From positions 1,741,690 through 1,805,689 of the forward strand of contig CBDDDJ010000005.1 of assembly GCA_965226475.1 (NCBI GenBank): DNA of 64,000 bases. The letters run 5' to 3'. Every line of letters starts with the position of its first letter. Positions within the stretch are counted from its first letter, which is position 1. The position numbers were made by a program, and so were the translations under genes. The notes beneath the pieces are model-generated. The model searched no databases. It had not been told where the DNA came from and saw only the letters and a program-made list of their open reading frames with translations. This DNA is from Alphaproteobacteria bacterium (GTDB lineage Bacteria > Pseudomonadota > Alphaproteobacteria > GCA-2731375). This document shows positions 3,171 through 7,934 of this stretch, one piece after another.

Positions 3171-4778
3171 CGTAACTGCCCAGGTACGTGGCCGCCTTTC
3201 AGGCGGCGTGGAGACGTGCGATCAGGGTTTCGGGATTTTCCATGAGCGCCTGGATGATGTTCCAGCCCTGTTTTCTGGCGGTCGAGATGAAGCCGCGGAC
3301 GGTGGCAAAGTCTTCGGCGCCTTTCTGGCTGCGGAAGCCGCCGGAGATTTTCTGCTTGACCTTCATCATGCGCCCGTCCTGCTCGGCCTGATTGTTGGTG
3401 AACGGCACGGCGAAATTGGTGAGGAAGCGTAGCGCATCTTCCTTGCGAGCCTGAAGGCGCCGGAGAAGGTTGTGGCCGACGCGGCGCGGCTTGCGTCCCC
3501 GGCGCCTGGCCTTGCCCTCGACCGGTTTGGGCGCGAGAGGAGGTTGGGCCTCGTGAAAGGCGATGCCCTCGGCCGTGATGGCGTCCCAACATCGTCGGAA
3601 GCGGCTGACGAGGCTTGGTTTCAGCGCCACTCCCCGCTCCCGGGCGAGATTTACCGCGTGGCAGGCGCGGCGCAATAGTCTCTGCATCTTGCCCGCCCAG
3701 TCCTCCTTCTCGATCTCGACCAGGGCTTGCAACTCGCGCAGGTGATGGGCGTTGCACAGCGCGTGCCGCACCCCCTCCATCGTGAAGTACGGCTTCCAGT
3801 GGTCGTGGACGACGATGCCGCCGACGCCGCCGAGCAGGCTGCCGCGCCGGGGCGAAACCCGGTAGAAGGTCAACAGCGCCGTGGACGCGACGTGCAACCA
3901 TTGACCCCGCCCGGCGACCCGGAACCCGGTCTCGTCCATGTGCTTGACCGGCGCCGATTTCACCAGCTCGCGGATCGTCCCGACGACGCCTTGCACGGAC
4001 TCGGCGCTGTTTCGGCCCATCCGCGCGATGCTCGCCGCAGACAGCCCGGCCCCGAACAGATCCTTCATCAATGCGGCCAGGCGGTCCTCGGGCAGGAGCT
4101 GGTAGTGCGACAGGTAGACCACCATGGCTCCGATCCGACCGCCGTACTGAACCGGGCCGGTGACGCCGTCGGGAAAGGAAGCCCGAGTTTGCGTGCCGCA
4201 ATGCCCGCAACGGCAGCGATGCGCCCGATGCTCCGTGACCACCAGGGGCCGGGGCTCGGGCAGGTCGAAAACCTGACGGGCGCCGTGGCCGGTGGTCATA
4301 TCCGGCGTCAATCCCGAACCACACCGCCGGCACGTCTCGGGATAATGATCGACGCTGGCGTCGGGATCGGCGACTTGGCGCAGGGTCTCGCCCTCGTGGC
4401 CCTTCTGCCCGCCCGGCTTGCGATCCGATTTTCCGCGAAGGCTCCCGGTGCGTCGCTTCTTCTTCCCCGCCGGCGGTTTGTTCAATCCATCGCTGGACGG
4501 CGGCTTGCCGCTGTTCGTGCTGTTCAGGCCAAGCTGGCGCTCGAGTTCGCCAAGCCGGAGTTCGAGCTCGGCGAGCCGCGACCCTTGGGCCAGCACCACA
4601 TCGATCAGGTCGTCTTTCGACAAAAAGGCGAGAGCATACCTATCCATCGAATCCTTAGAATCGACCCACCATCTCTTGTCAAACGAAATCTAGGCCGTCA
4701 GCGCCTCAAACCCACAAAATCTGCCCCGAGAGACCCAATCCGCAGCCCCAGCGAAATCAGATACCTGGGCAGTTACAT
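3171..4778 (-). mobile_element. IS66-family insertion sequence, ISBst12-like single-ORF type (about 1.6 kb)
   Basis: Terminal inverted repeats GTAACTGCCCAGGTAC (3171..3186) and GTACCTGGGCAGTTAC-like (4762..4777) match at 15 of 16 positions and start with GTAA as in IS66-family ends. They enclose a single 482-aa IS66-type transposase. Confidence 0.75.
3199..4647 (-). CDS. IS66-family transposase (TnpC-like, DDE)
   Basis: A 482-aa ORF with an N-terminal leucine zipper, a CxxC...CxxC zinc-finger region (CRRCGSG...CRCGHCG) and a C-terminal DDE core typical of IS66 TnpC. Confidence 0.85.
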   Translation of the reverse strand: MDRYALAFLSKDDLIDVVLAQGSRLAELELRLGELERQLGLNSTNSGKPPSSDGLNKPPAGKKKRRTGSLRGKSDRKPGGQKGHEGETLRQVADPDASVDHYPETCRRCGSGLTPDMTTGHGARQVFDLPEPRPLVVTEHRAHRCRCGHCGTQTRASFPDGVTGPVQYGGRIGAMVVYLSHYQLLPEDRLAALMKDLFGAGLSAASIARMGRNSAESVQGVVGTIRELVKSAPVKHMDETGFRVAGRGQWLHVASTALLTFYRVSPRRGSLLGGVGGIVVHDHWKPYFTMEGVRHALCNAHHLRELQALVEIEKEDWAGKMQRLLRRACHAVNLARERGVALKPSLVSRFRRCWDAITAEGIAFHEAQPPLAPKPVEGKARRRGRKPRRVGHNLLRRLQARKEDALRFLTNFAVPFTNNQAEQDGRMMKVKQKISGGFRSQKGAEDFATVRGFISTARKQGWNIIQALMENPETLIARLHAA

Positions 4779-4794
4779 ATATACATCATACCAT

Positions 4795-6036
4795 TTACAT
4801 TGTATTAATCATTTCAATGCGACAGCATCGATAGGCCCACCGCGCAAACGACCTTCCGGCAACTTCCTCGCCGGCCATCCAGCGCAGCACAACAGGGTCA
4901 AGTTTTGAATTGTGAATTTCTCCTACCAATGATCCGGCGTTGACTATCCGACGTCCGCCGCTGACGCCATCGAAATCATAATTCAAGACTTGAACCCTTG
5001 CATCGTGGGATGTTGCCGAGAGCCCGGATCGGGCGGCGAGCGTCTCGACGGTGGCGTATTGCCGTGGCATCAATTCCGATTGATGCGCCCCAAGCATAAA
5101 CCAGACCTTTTTACAGAAATTCAGCGCAATGTAGGGAGGCATGTTGTTGTGAGGCTGGCTGCCGCCCGCTTCTCCAATGCTCGCCTTGACGAGACCGTGT
5201 TTGAATCCCGCCGGGGCCTGATCAAATTTCACTTTCCGTACGCCAGCATGAAACCAGTATTCATGCTCTGGTCCATGCGTGTGGCTTGGCATCTCTTCTG
5301 CCGTCAGGATGTGCTTTTCCTCGCCACTTATTTCGCCGAAACGGTGGTTAGTAAGTCCGTGTCGTCGATCCGTGTTGACGCCAATGATAAATCGCCCTTG
5401 TGCTTCTTCGTAAGTCACCCAGCCAGTAGGGCATTCTTGACCTGCAAAAGCAATAACCGTATCTCTGGGCAAAACCGCATCATTGAGAACAGCCTCGATT
5501 TTACTAGTTCCCAGTGCTTCCAGTTCTCGGCGAACGTTTGCTTGGAGTTCATCTATGGAGGAGTTAGTATTAGCAAGAATATCCGCAGCCTTACTTGTCA
5601 GGACTGTTTCTGTAGTCTCATTGACTTTTTTACTAATGAGATCTTCTACCTCTTTTTCACCCATTTTATTTTTTATCGCCATCACCACTTGATCATCAAG
5701 TCTATGTTTCAAATTGTCAACAATGCGATACTCGACAACCTTTTGGTCTATCGTTGCTTGCAGAAGTTCCTTCGATTCATCGATGTTTTTTCCAGTGTAA
5801 AAGACAAACGCGCCGCCAATCGTCGTCAGGACGACTGATACGCCGATCGTTAAGTACCTGAACTGGCGTTGAAGGTGTTCGCGGTAGCTCGCCGCCGCGT
5901 TATTATAACTCTCGGAGAGGTGGCTTATTGCATTCGTCAGCGTTTGATCCTGACTCTGCATCACTCGCCTGACTTCGACCTCAACAGCCGTTCTAGTTTC
6001 GTCGTCCATGTCAATCCCCCAAAGAAATGGCGCCAA
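4795..6036 (-). CDS. Membrane-anchored coiled-coil protein with a C-terminal phage tail-collar domain; low-GC foreign gene
   Basis: A 413-aa ORF with one TM helix (YLTIGVSVVLTTIGGAFVFY), a long coiled-coil and a C-terminal tail-collar domain (FAGQECPTGW...EMPSHTH...HNNMPPYIALNFC). GC is about 45 % against about 67 % background. The last ~35 codons read through MITE copy A and on to a stop in the GC-rich DNA between the MITE and the IS66 element, so the true C-terminus is uncertain. Confidence 0.7.
   Translation of the reverse strand: MAPFLWGIDMDDETRTAVEVEVRRVMQSQDQTLTNAISHLSESYNNAAASYREHLQRQFRYLTIGVSVVLTTIGGAFVFYTGKNIDESKELLQATIDQKVVEYRIVDNLKHRLDDQVVMAIKNKMGEKEVEDLISKKVNETTETVLTSKAADILANTNSSIDELQANVRRELEALGTSKIEAVLNDAVLPRDTVIAFAGQECPTGWVTYEEAQGRFIIGVNTDRRHGLTNHRFGEISGEEKHILTAEEMPSHTHGPEHEYWFHAGVRKVKFDQAPAGFKHGLVKASIGEAGGSQPHNNMPPYIALNFCKKVWFMLGAHQSELMPRQYATVETLAARSGLSATSHDARVQVLNYDFDGVSGGRRIVNAGSLVGEIHNSKLDPVVLRWMAGEEVAGRSFARWAYRCCRIEMINTM
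4887..5005. repeat. 120-bp palindromic MITE-like repeat, copy A
   Basis: About 88 % identical to 6119..6238. It has terminal inverted repeats GGGTCAAGTTTTGAATTGTGAATTTC / GAAATCATAATTCAAGACTTGAACCC. Confidence 0.7.
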
Positions 6037-6118
6037 ATATGCCTTGTATGAATTATAGGCTGACTTTCAGGCGTCATCCAAAACTTTTCTCGCATAATCT
6101 CGCCCGCGCGCACACTTT

Positions 6119-6238
6119 GCACAATAGGGTCAAATCTTGAATTGTGAATTTCTCCTACCAATGACCCGGCGTTGTTTATCCGGCATCCGCCACTGGCGCC
6201 ATCAAATTCACAATTCAGGACTTGACCCCTTACATCGC
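6119..6238. repeat. 120-bp palindromic MITE-like repeat, copy B (direct orientation relative to copy A)
   Basis: Same element as 4887..5005, with terminal inverted repeats AGGGTCAAATCTTGAATTGTGAATTT / AAATTCACAATTCAGGACTTGACCCC. It directly abuts the SDR C-terminal remnant. Confidence 0.7.
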
Positions 6239-6430
6239 GCGCCGGAGGAGATCGTCGCCGCCGCGCTCTATCTCGCGGGCGGCGGGGCCAGCTTGACCAG
6301 CGGCACCACCATCCGCGTCGACGGCGGCACCGACCGAGAAACGGGCACCCCCCTCCCTTGCCGGGCAGGAATGGGTTATATCTGGGGCCGGCGCGCGAAG
6401 GGCGCGCCCCGAAACGATGACGGAGGATGA
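6239..6430 (+). pseudogene. SDR C-terminal fragment, probably the 3' remnant of the gene whose 5' part is at 2898..3087
   Basis: The translation EEIVAAALYLAGGGASLTSGTTIRVDGG is the canonical SDR C-terminal motif. The central ~150 codons of the gene are absent. Confidence 0.55.
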
Positions 6431-6434
6431 CGAG

Positions 6435-6866
6435 ATGAGCGTGGCGATACAGATCGACGACGACCAGGGCGGCATGCGCGCGGGCGGCGTGGCGGTGGCG
6501 AAGGCTTCCCATCCGAAGATGGTGCCGGGCCGGCGCGACTTCATGCAGTATCGCGAACTCGGCGTCACCGAGGCGAGCGAGGGCAAGATCCGCGCCCAGG
6601 TCACCTCGTCCTCGCAAGGCCTGTCGGAGCCGACCGGCTGGCACGTCCACATCTGCGAGGGCCAGTTCGTCTACATGATGAGCGGCTGGGTCGACCTGGA
6701 GTTCGAGGACGGCAAGGTCCGCATCGAGGCCGGTGACTCGATCTACATCCCCGGCGGCACCCCGCACAACGAGACCGCCACCTCGGACAATTTCGACCTG
6801 GTCGAGGTCTCCGTTCCCGCCGACATGGGCACCAAGCCCTGCGATCCGCCGGCCGGCCGTAGCTGA
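6435..6866 (+). CDS. Cupin-domain protein
   Basis: The motif GWHVH..EGQFVYMMSGWVDLEF....IYIPGGTPHN is a cupin-2 two-motif signature. A GGAGGA Shine-Dalgarno sequence lies upstream of the 6435 ATG. Confidence 0.6.
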   Translation: MSVAIQIDDDQGGMRAGGVAVAKASHPKMVPGRRDFMQYRELGVTEASEGKIRAQVTSSSQGLSEPTGWHVHICEGQFVYMMSGWVDLEFEDGKVRIEAGDSIYIPGGTPHNETATSDNFDLVEVSVPADMGTKPCDPPAGRS

Positions 6867-6938
6867 GAAACCGATAGCGTAGCCGGCGCCCGGCCCCAAT
6901 TTCGGGGCCGGGCATCGGCGCGTCGAGGGGCGGGCGCC

Positions 6939-7934
6939 ATGTCCGAACCGCCTGCCGACAAGGCTCCCGAATTCGCATCGGGCCGCTCGCCGAACTTGGT
7001 CGGCATCGTCTGCGTCATGGGCGCGGTCACCGCCTTCACCACCCAGGACATGACGGTGAAGTGGCTGAGCGAATCCTACCCGCTGCACCAGATCACGCTG
7101 TTCCGCGCCGCCATTGCCATGGCGATCATCGTCGGCGTCTTCATGCCGCTCGAAGGCGGCTGGCGCCATCTGCGCACCCGCCGGCCGGGGCTCCACCTGC
7201 TGCGCGGCTTCGCCGTGGTGGTCGCCAACATGTGCTTCTTCACCGGCCTGGTGACCTTGCCGCTCGGCGAGGCGACGGCGATCTTCTTCGTGGCGCCCCT
7301 GTTGATCACCGCGCTCTCCGTCGTCTTCCTCGGCGAGCAGGTGGGCGCGCGGCGCTGGCTCGCGGTGCTGGTCGGCCTCACGGGCGTGGTGGTGATGATG
7401 CGGCCCGGAACCGAGACCTTCCAGTTGGCGGCCCTGCTGCCGCTCGCCGCCGCGCTCGCCTATGCCAGCCTGCAGATCATGACCCGCAAGCTCGGCATGG
7501 CGGAGAAGGCCTCGACCATGTCCTTCTATATCCAGATCGTTTTCATTGCCGTCTCGACCACCATCGGCCTCATCGTCGGCGACGGCCGCTATGTCAGCGG
7601 CGATGCGCACCTGGATTTCCTGCTCCGCGCCTGGTCCTGGCCGGACCTGCCCGGCCTGGGCGTCCTCCTGGTAATCGGAGTCTTGAGCGCGATCGGCAGC
7701 TACCTGGTGAGCCAGGCCTACCGGATCAGCGAGGCGGCGCTGGTGGCACCGTTTGAATACGTCGCGATCCCGATGGCGGTTTTCTGGAGCGCGCTGGTCT
7801 GGGGCGACTGGCCGGACGCCATCGCCTGGTCGGGCATCGCGCTGATCGGCGGCGCCGGCCTCTACGTCTTCTACCGCGAAACCGTGCGCGGCCGCCTCAA
7901 CGCGCTGCGCCGCCCGATGCCGCGGAATCGGTGA
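6939..7934 (+). CDS. DMT-superfamily (EamA-like) transporter
   Basis: A 331-aa protein of about 10 TM segments with the duplicated EamA pattern. Confidence 0.7.
   Translation: MSEPPADKAPEFASGRSPNLVGIVCVMGAVTAFTTQDMTVKWLSESYPLHQITLFRAAIAMAIIVGVFMPLEGGWRHLRTRRPGLHLLRGFAVVVANMCFFTGLVTLPLGEATAIFFVAPLLITALSVVFLGEQVGARRWLAVLVGLTGVVVMMRPGTETFQLAALLPLAAALAYASLQIMTRKLGMAEKASTMSFYIQIVFIAVSTTIGLIVGDGRYVSGDAHLDFLLRAWSWPDLPGLGVLLVIGVLSAIGSYLVSQAYRISEAALVAPFEYVAIPMAVFWSALVWGDWPDAIAWSGIALIGGAGLYVFYRETVRGRLNALRRPMPRNR

Follow-up and report, generated by a model that had tools for sequence, protein, structure and literature searches.

This study concerns a low-GC gene in a 64,000-nucleotide stretch of the alphaproteobacterial contig CBDDDJ010000005.1 (hereafter, the window, meaning the whole stretch of DNA that was analyzed). 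The ORF list of the window contains an intact minus-strand open reading frame (ORF) at 4795..6036, the core product of which can be identified with considerable confidence as an exported, membrane-anchored, orphan protein bearing a phage-fibre tip, belonging to a large uncharacterised family. The gene is built of the following elements, where aa denotes amino acids and GC3 the GC content of third codon positions:

5104..6009, minus strand: core coding sequence (CDS) of 302 aa for an exported fibre-tip protein (the 'FCKK' subfamily of Gp10_C), based on the ORF, the reading of its ATG and ribosome-binding site, a 98% identical database protein (P0001), and a PF21939 match of 30 bits against a cut-off of 27
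6015..6020, minus strand: Shine–Dalgarno-like GGGGGA, 5 nt upstream of the ATG at 6009, read from the sequence
5857..6009, minus strand: putative N-terminal cytoplasmic segment, aa 1–51, predicted helical, ending in REHLQRQFR and conserved in P0002, P0003, and P0005
5794..5856, minus strand: single predicted transmembrane (TM) helix, aa 52–72, YLTIGVSVVLTTIGGAFVFYT, from a hydropathy scan
5476..5793, minus strand: predicted helical stalk, aa 73–178 (~105 aa), with the lowest GC in the gene (0.41; GC3 0.34) and no significant heptad signal, from composition, AlphaFold, and a periodicity test
5104..5475, minus strand: head domain, aa 179–302 (124 aa), with a predicted tail-fibre-tip fold, invariant C193, W197, H243, H245, H287, N289, M290, P292, and C299, and a variable loop at aa 246–281, from alignment, a model of mean confidence 80.6, Foldseek, and PHROGs
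5101..5103, minus strand: lost stop codon, TGG here and TGA in sister assemblies, from comparison with L001, L002, L092, and L094
4795..5100, minus strand: 102-aa read-through extension with a new stop, running across the first of two mobile-element copies (MITE-like copy 1, described below), from the ORF; the 404-aa product is also found in Logan assemblies (P0071)

The CDS almost certainly starts at the ATG at 6009, the first in-frame ATG of the ORF, because GGGGGA lies at the spacing given above and the database proteins P0001 and P0071 begin there. The sole strongly hydrophobic segment of the protein, aa 52–72 (Kyte–Doolittle hydropathy up to 1.86), is bordered by an R/H-rich sequence on its N side (REHLQRQFR) and an acidic one on its C side (GKNIDESKE). 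These flank charges point to an N-in/C-out orientation, and the protein is predicted to be of the type II signal-anchor kind. In the stalk, 32% of the residues are charged, with only 2 Pro and 3 Gly, and AlphaFold places helices at residues 76–115 and 118–177 with low confidence (predicted local distance difference test, pLDDT, 46–70). A sequence-only reading of this DNA had proposed one TM helix, a heptad-rich coil, and a C-terminal tail-collar domain. The order of TM helix, stalk, and fibre-tip head is borne out and is typical of the family (111 of 128 sampled members have an N-terminal hydrophobic segment), whereas the heptads are not: the 3.5-residue hydrophobic periodicity of the stalk gave z = 0.3 against shuffles and a register test p of about 0.5, as measured with a crude home-made periodicity statistic rather than a dedicated coiled-coil predictor. 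By the same measure, heptad periodicity is strong in the relatives P0029, P0011, P0024, and P0019 (z = 4.8–6.7), against z ≤ 1 in the window protein and its nearest relatives.

Profile searches place the head among phage tail proteins. The Pfam model PF21939 (Gp10_C) matches aa 197–297 with 30.0 bits, above its curated cut-off of 27 (E = 1.2e-6), and P0001 has the same precomputed domain. PF07484 (Collar), the model named in the sequence-only reading, found no match in the window protein even at E ≤ 1 in the Pfam scan, and an NCBIfam scan of the protein returned no family. Thus, the specific Collar assignment falls, and the broader call to the tail-collar superfamily stands because its sister model PF21939 is positive and entries annotated as 'microcystin-dependent protein' by the Joint Genome Institute (JGI) are significant homologues. 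In PHROGs, five tail or tail-fibre families match the protein at 1e-12 to 1e-5 (best 7e-12). In a comparison with 50,697 phage records, only the last 100–170 residues align, to the C-termini of tail fibre, short tail fibre, minor tail protein, and antireceptor entries, and no sequenced phage record covers at least 80% of the protein, in agreement with the earlier remark that it is unlike classical virion fibres. A profile search of PDB sequences yielded the Pa223 tail fibre as its sole match.

The full-length monomer model was poor (pLDDT 60.6) and unsuited to a fold search, while a head-only model built from a 140-row alignment reached 80.6, its sole weak part being aa 250–279. All structure predictions were of monomers. 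The Foldseek neighbours of the head were the Pa223 fibre (9nxk; E = 1.6e-4), the Bizionia prophage C24 protein (6ov6), which is described as a prophage receptor-binding tip (PMC11821841), T4 baseplate chains, the T4 gp10 C-terminal domain, and 2fkk. Their TM-scores were low (0.41–0.46), as expected because a single-chain model was compared with intertwined trimers. The head includes MPSHTHG, followed by PHNNMPPYIALNFCKK; residues 179–302 terminate in PHNNMPPYIALNFCKKV, and the C-terminus of the core CDS reads NMPPYIALNFCKKV. An alignment of full-architecture relatives contains invariant C193, W197, G210, G229, H243, H245, H287, N289, M290, P292, L296, and C299; H243, H245, H287, N289, M290, and P292 are invariant in 32 sequences, and both histidines of the HxH motif in 140. 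The head is a reduced version of the phage tail-fibre tips known from T4 gp10 and gp12, carrying HxH and PHNNMPPY; the gp12 comparator is the tip of the short tail fibre.

The window protein shares with the C-terminal domain of T4 gp10 (PF21939) the hidden Markov model match above cut-off, the HxH, the PHNN(M/L)(P/Q)PY motif, and the Foldseek hits to T4 baseplate chains and 2fkk. However, the T4 proteins belong to the virion, are assembled in the cytoplasm, and attach to the baseplate through N-terminal domains, whereas the window protein is anchored in a membrane, has a stalk of helices and two further invariant cysteines, and lacks phage neighbours. In sequence and structure, the head is closest to the Pa223 fibre (9nxk), Bizionia prophage C24 (6ov6), and the antireceptor of Lactobacillus phages LL-Ku/LL-H; unlike the window protein, these tail-fibre tips all sit in tail modules, and only their last 100–130 aa correspond. 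The bacterial COG4675/MdpB/Collar proteins, which are likewise uncharacterised and often found outside prophages, are significant homologues of the head (P0035, P0039, and P0050). Their homology to the window protein runs only through the shared C-terminal half, and the window protein differs in having neither a PF07484 match nor the ALPDLRGR segment, while MdpB-type tails end in NYIIK or ..IAL without a cysteine.

The window protein belongs to a subfamily that we define here, named 'FCKK' after its C-terminal signature PHNNMPPYIALxFCKK. It is defined by a C-terminus of NMPPYIALxxC plus 1–9 residues, the pairing of this cysteine with that of a CPxGW motif, and an N-terminal signal peptide or anchor; the window protein has C193, C299, and the TM helix at aa 52–72. 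A word-indexed search returned 60 relatives, about half with the full architecture, and a profile search of 1.84 billion cluster representatives (50% identity) returned 1,137 at E ≤ 1e-30 and 40,126 at E ≤ 1e-3, the weak end of the latter list consisting of classical fibres. Among 185 sampled sequences, 128 end in NMPPYIAL-xx-C-x(1–9), with a median length of 258 aa. About 85% of these FCKK members (111/128) have the N-terminal hydrophobic segment, anchor-like in 82 and signal-peptide-like in 29, and stalks range from 16 to 182 residues. In the 140-row alignment, both cysteines are present in 113 rows, neither in 24, and one alone in 2; a hydrophobic N-terminus accompanies 95 of the 113 Cys-pair proteins but just 2 of the 24 Cys-less, phage-type relatives. 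The cysteine pair is thus mostly confined to exported forms, in which an inner-membrane anchor or a signal peptide precedes the fibre tip, and C193/C299 may form a disulfide in a head folded outside the cytoplasm. The region from HxH to PHNN varies in length and sequence in the alignment and is of low confidence in the head model, a pattern expected of a putative ligand-binding loop on a conserved scaffold. Membrane-anchored members went unmentioned in full-text literature searched by Pfam/COG names and by architecture, a search in which subscription journals were not covered.

The subfamily is missing from viral contigs. A degenerate pattern for NMPPYIALxxCK had 0 exact matches in the 2.9 million viral contigs of IMG/VR, where NMPPYIAL, used as a positive control, was found in 11 contigs, all with Cys-less tails, and the FCKK end occurred in 0 of the best 79 HNNMPPY loci. 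The FCKK subfamily, thus, seems to be cellular or carried by non-phage mobile elements rather than viral. Two IMG/VR contigs (L192, about 3493–3515, and L199, about 1669–1691) encode a 224-aa protein whose N-terminus, MDYIILILFIIIILVII, is very hydrophobic and whose collar tail, NMPPYIALAYIIKI, has no cysteine; therefore, N-terminally anchored collar proteins do exist on viral contigs, outside the FCKK subfamily. The gene is not part of a tail or baseplate module, as its window neighbours are metabolic genes and insertion sequence (IS) elements, and membership in a prophage tail module was ruled out by these neighbours, a Pfam/PHROGs scan of 127 immediate neighbours at other loci, and the IMG/VR scans. 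The sequence-only reading had named an intact prophage tail module elsewhere as grounds for rejecting its view; tail modules were found neither here nor at about 75 other loci.

The C-terminal extension of the window protein is of recent origin. On the minus strand, position 5101 is a G where relatives have an A, which turns TGA into TGG at codon 303. The closest database protein, P0001, is 302 aa long, 98% identical, and stops after NFCKKV, and its two contigs have the same flanking genes as the window, in a gapless alignment that is 99.2% identical. Eight assemblies of the locus fall into three alleles, with TGA in four (L001, L002, L092, and L094) and TGG in the window, L093, L095, and L096. 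TGG is a real polymorphism rather than an assembly error because several assemblies carry it and the 404-aa product is recorded in Logan. Since homologues of the same architecture all end within a few residues of FCKK, the short 302-aa form is taken as ancestral, and the 102-aa tail is best read as a lineage-specific read-through caused by a point mutation, i.e., a recent stop loss and not a design feature. The earlier observation that the 3' end reads through a mobile-element copy therefore holds for the ORF, which crosses copy 1, and is refined to a TGA-to-TGG change in one lineage, with TGA kept in four sister assemblies. All 302 codons are open in the three alleles across the eight assemblies, with no frameshift; the alleles differ by 4 synonymous and 4–5 non-synonymous changes, for a ratio of non-synonymous to synonymous polymorphism (pN/pS) of about 0.3. 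The gene is easily overlooked: public gene calls in three assemblies miss it and report a 229-aa antisense ORF instead, so that standard gene callers pass over the window gene in favour of its antisense strand. In the window, the antisense ORF (4990–5838, plus strand) extends to 282 aa from a TTG, and it has no Pfam match.

The gene lies in a segment with a GC of 0.41–0.55 (4600–6200), compared to about 0.68 on both flanks, and two copies of a miniature inverted-repeat transposable element (MITE)-like sequence flank it, so its foreign base composition and MITE flanks, both pointed out in the sequence-only reading, are confirmed. The other features of the locus are as follows, where TIR denotes a terminal inverted repeat:

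4887..5005, no strand: MITE-like copy 1, TIR arms at 4895–4919 and 4973–4996, from repeat analysis
6119..6237, no strand: MITE-like copy 2, TIR arms at 6127–6151 and 6204–6228, its outer end abutting the dehydrogenase remnant, from repeat analysis
3172..4776, minus strand: IS66-family IS with perfect 15-bp inverted repeats, GTAACTGCCCAGGTA, and a transposase at 3199–4647; absent from L094, and an IS1595-family element occupies the site in L092
2898..3161, plus strand: 5' remnant of a short-chain dehydrogenase gene, model positions 1–55, from a profile match
6230..6343, plus strand: 3' remnant of the same dehydrogenase gene, model positions 205–235 of 236, from a profile match

Both ends of one dehydrogenase gene flank the low-GC segment; therefore, the island replaced the middle of that gene (~150 codons), a disruption common to all sister assemblies examined. 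The remaining genes within 8 kb of the window gene serve ordinary metabolism and transport. The AT-rich spot beside the gene holds the IS66-family element in the window, the IS1595-family element in L092 (4866–5804), and 79 bp of unique AT-rich sequence in L094 (5757–5835); it is an insertion hot spot with a small associated deletion. Taken together, the locus is a small, horizontally acquired, low-GC island that was later hit by MITEs and insertion sequences. A plasmid origin was considered, and neither the IS nor the island had a match in PLSDB.

The two MITE-like copies, the only ones in the window, are in direct orientation, 119 bp long, and 87% identical, with 25-bp TIRs for which 0 chance occurrences are expected. 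As in a MITE, the unit is short (about 105–119 bp), non-coding, and bounded by TIRs that are 83–92% complementary. The 25-nt TIR, GGGTCAAnTnnTGAATTGTGAATTT, recurs in 13 unrelated metagenome contigs (L097–L109; GC 29–53%), in several of which it forms inverted pairs around segments of 150–1000 bp with unrelated interiors (e.g., L106:1249–2282, L098:1180–1331, and L105:3389–3575), and this recurrence fits a putative family of TIR elements. In the window and the 13 metagenome contigs, no transposase partner or autonomous element was found, and no clean target-site duplication can be read at either copy, where the surrounding sequence is part of the 119-bp repeat. Viewed as a structured RNA, the element gave only sub-threshold noise from microRNA models. 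A sigma-70-like TTCACA-16-TATTGT lies at 6121–6148 (minus strand), ~112 nt upstream of the ATG and inside the gene-proximal arm of copy 2; the promoter-like scan overall was not above chance (2 sites versus 1.6 expected).

We scanned one genome per species (185,579 species) for NMPPYIAL and confirmed 82 relatives, of which 80 loci were kept. The carriers are mostly marine Alphaproteobacteria, including Ruegeria, Roseibium/Stappiaceae, Tateyamaria, Shimia, and other Rhodobacterales, as well as Rhodospirillales and Hyphomicrobiales; beyond this class, the gene was found in Shewanella/Parashewanella and a few other phyla. An all-against-all clustering of neighbours, made in search of a conserved operon partner, gave only a recombinase, acs, and transposases. 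In 11 Rhodobacterales loci, the family gene directly follows the acetyl-CoA synthetase gene (acs) on the same strand, while a tyrosine recombinase of ~320 aa lies immediately downstream in 8 loci from different alphaproteobacterial families, 55–69% identical between loci. The recombinase reads as translationally coupled to the family gene: its start overlaps the stop of the latter in six loci (L061, L034, L046, L045, L032, and L009), a 7-bp gap separates the two in L039, and L079 has a second family copy in divergent orientation, whose stop the recombinase overlaps. The tip-gene/recombinase modules are:

L061:3231–4828
L034:7905–9439
L046:7734–9364
L045:762–2392
L039:7896–9347
L032:109–1700
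L009:8001–9952
L079:6011–7629

In two-gene modules, the recombinase has a host-like GC3 (0.76–0.86), as opposed to 0.38–0.68 for the tip gene, and the family gene is of foreign GC in the window, L039, and L079. Among the 127 immediate neighbours, the leading Pfam families are Phage_integrase (11), acs domains (7), and transposases (IS1595, rve, Tn5, and IS66), and PHROGs adds only 2 tail-like proteins, labelled 'central tail fiber J' and 'tail protein'. The fiber-J-like neighbour is probably an ORF of ~1,341 aa in L067 that stands beside a Cys-less NFFIKV variant. A shufflon or invertible tip, suggested by the tyrosine recombinase and the second copy in L079, was also considered: no suitable inverted repeats occur in five recombinase-linked loci, and the window has no recombinase. 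Defence genes stand beside some copies, for instance, a cyclase of a cyclic-oligonucleotide-based anti-phage signalling system (CBASS) and a SAVED protein in L046 and an McrB-like ATPase in L061; in L005, Abi_alpha occurs together with a nuclease and an integrase. In L046, the CBASS-like set (4659–7665; a DncV-like cyclase, a 246-aa ORF, and a SAVED-domain protein) is directly upstream of the tip-gene/recombinase pair, and in L061, the McrB-like protein (AAA_5/MrcB_N) is downstream of it. A Thalassobaculaceae metagenome-assembled genome (OY729512.2) holds three near-identical family ORFs of 144–146 aa without a hydrophobic N-terminus (L055, L064, and L066) at three chromosomal sites, in regions that also carry IS1595/ISXO2-like transposase ORFs; this gene may ride on a repeated element.

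These data are best read as a binding protein that moves horizontally, faces the periplasm, and is probably trimeric. Three chains, joined by their stalks and anchored in the inner membrane, would form a homotrimer that holds a disulfide-stabilised, metal-centred head in the periplasm, which is where an N-terminal anchor (N-in/C-out) would put it in a diderm cell. By homology to solved fibre tips, the HxH histidines could hold a metal ion at the trimer centre, and the hypervariable HxH–PHNN loop would bind an envelope ligand, either glycan or protein. The gene is proposed to travel as cargo of non-phage mobile elements and may benefit its carrier by changing a component of the envelope or occupying it, thereby excluding phages or other invaders. 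Among possible functions, exclusion or modification at the level of the envelope, by a gene carried as mobile-element cargo, is placed first, as a tentative choice with less than even odds, because the gene is associated with recombinases and transposons, is foreign in composition and patchy in distribution, and encodes a hypervariable loop. As for the explanation as a whole, centred on the identity and architecture together with a periplasm-facing binding protein, we judge it slightly more likely to be right than wrong.

Several points weigh against this explanation. No experiment or known homologue assigns a function, and the models of known defence systems in PADLOC gave only weak, coiled-region noise (best E = 4e-4). 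A classical prophage 'moron' mode of superinfection exclusion fits poorly with a family missing from viral contigs, and the acs-linked Rhodobacterales copies look vertically inherited and fit a housekeeping role better. Trimer, disulfide, and metal binding are deduced from motifs and homology to solved fibres, and the window stalk has no heptad signal (z = 0.3). PADLOC families numbered 40 among 130 ORFs within 2.5 kb versus 17 among 130 ORFs more than 4.5 kb away, a contrast too small and crude to establish enrichment, and defence neighbours are sporadic. Likewise, the pN/pS of about 0.3 is compatible with constraint, but 8–9 substitutions are too few as proof.

In a first alternative, the protein would be a structural envelope tether or ruler with a housekeeping role, its trimeric stalk spanning the periplasm and its head binding peptidoglycan or an outer-membrane component. 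The fixed position just downstream of acs in 11 Rhodobacterales loci suggests vertical inheritance, and the stalks of P0029 (acs-linked) and P0011, with 176–187 aa and heptad z = 5.6–6.7, would measure about 25 nm by helix-rise arithmetic, roughly the size of the periplasm. However, stalk length across the family runs between 16 and 182 aa, and of the 111 hydrophobic N-termini, 29 are signal-peptide-like only, so no fixed geometry seems to be required; moreover, the family occurs in only about 80 of the 185,579 species genomes, recombinases or transposases often adjoin its genes, and the window copy is compositionally foreign and sits inside a broken gene. A tether function is placed second and is rather unlikely.

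We consider it just as unlikely that the gene is a decaying passenger without current function in this genome, although the window copy bears obvious scars. Its stop was lost, adding 102 junk residues through a MITE; the island is marked by the MITE pair and the IS66-family element, and in a sister strain, an IS1595-family element has taken the site of the latter; the gene callers used for three assemblies give the antisense ORF in its place; and other assemblies contain cluster members of 100 and 120 aa, which, however, may be fragments at contig ends. Against decay, the reading frame has stayed open through all 302 codons of three alleles in eight assemblies without a frameshift and with a pN/pS of about 0.3, all invariant family residues are intact, and some relatives (e.g., P0009) have natural C-terminal extensions after the head, such that an extension need not be destructive.

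Less probable still is display outside the cell, as an adhesin, receptor mimic, or contact-dependent factor, the roles suggested in the sequence-only reading. The homology of the head to receptor-binding tips and the precedent of Bdellovibrio, which displays phage-fibre-like mosaic adhesive trimers (MATs) on its surface (PMC10769870), are in its favour. MATs are cell-encoded, exported, phage-fibre-like trimers with swappable tips, 600–1,100 aa long, built of a cleaved signal peptide, a conserved beta-rich N-domain of ~130 aa, and a beta-helical shaft (PMC10769870). The window protein is alike in being an exported, fibre-like protein used by the cell and not by a virion, but the cleaved signal peptide, the N-domain, and the beta-helical shaft are all absent, and it has instead a signal-anchor, an alpha-helical stalk, and a gp10_C tip. 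By topology rules, the signal-anchor should keep the protein in the inner membrane of a diderm with its C-terminus in the periplasm, and no conserved secretion or outer-membrane partner adjoins the gene.

Finally, a role in the virion, as the spike of a membrane-containing phage or as a tail fibre belonging to a gene-transfer agent or cryptic prophage, is very improbable: the head fold is otherwise typical of tail fibres and the contigs L192 and L199 encode N-terminally anchored, albeit Cys-less, collar proteins, but none of the 2.9 million viral contigs matches the signature exactly, genes for capsid, tail, or baseplate are missing around the window gene and around FCKK-type copies elsewhere, and export signals with a Cys pair are ill-suited to the cytoplasmic assembly of tailed virions.

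The phage i-spanin (Rz) has an N-terminal TM helix followed by a periplasmic helical or coiled stalk, the same order as in the window protein, but spanins have neither a fibre-tip head nor a 50-aa cytoplasmic tail. Within 8 kb of the window gene, there is no o-spanin, holin, or endolysin, and the protein has no match to a spanin PHROG.

To our knowledge, phage receptor-binding domains are recycled in tailocins, contractile injection systems, and Bdellovibrio fibres, where they always point outward. If the FCKK proteins bind some part of the envelope, or a particle on its way in, from within the periplasm, they would represent a new kind of envelope-level interaction module. In the most far-reaching version, which is speculative and rather improbable, the FCKK proteins would be an undescribed class of phage-derived envelope proteins, i.e., disulfide-locked, metal-centred trimeric tips that an inner-membrane anchor keeps in the periplasm, that move by non-phage elements (in some lineages as a two-gene module with their own tyrosine recombinase), and that act as an envelope-level barrier or sensor against phages or other invaders; the cell would have turned a receptor-binding protein inward for its own use. 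The interest lies more in the family than in the scarred window copy, with more than 1,000 sequence clusters, mainly in marine Alphaproteobacteria. As such a module, the family would also be tractable, as its members are small single genes with a conserved scaffold and a hypervariable loop. The giant proteins P0089 (4,832 aa), P0149 (2,368 aa), and P0115 (1,509 aa) have 4–12 separate matches to the head profile in a tandem, multi-head arrangement.

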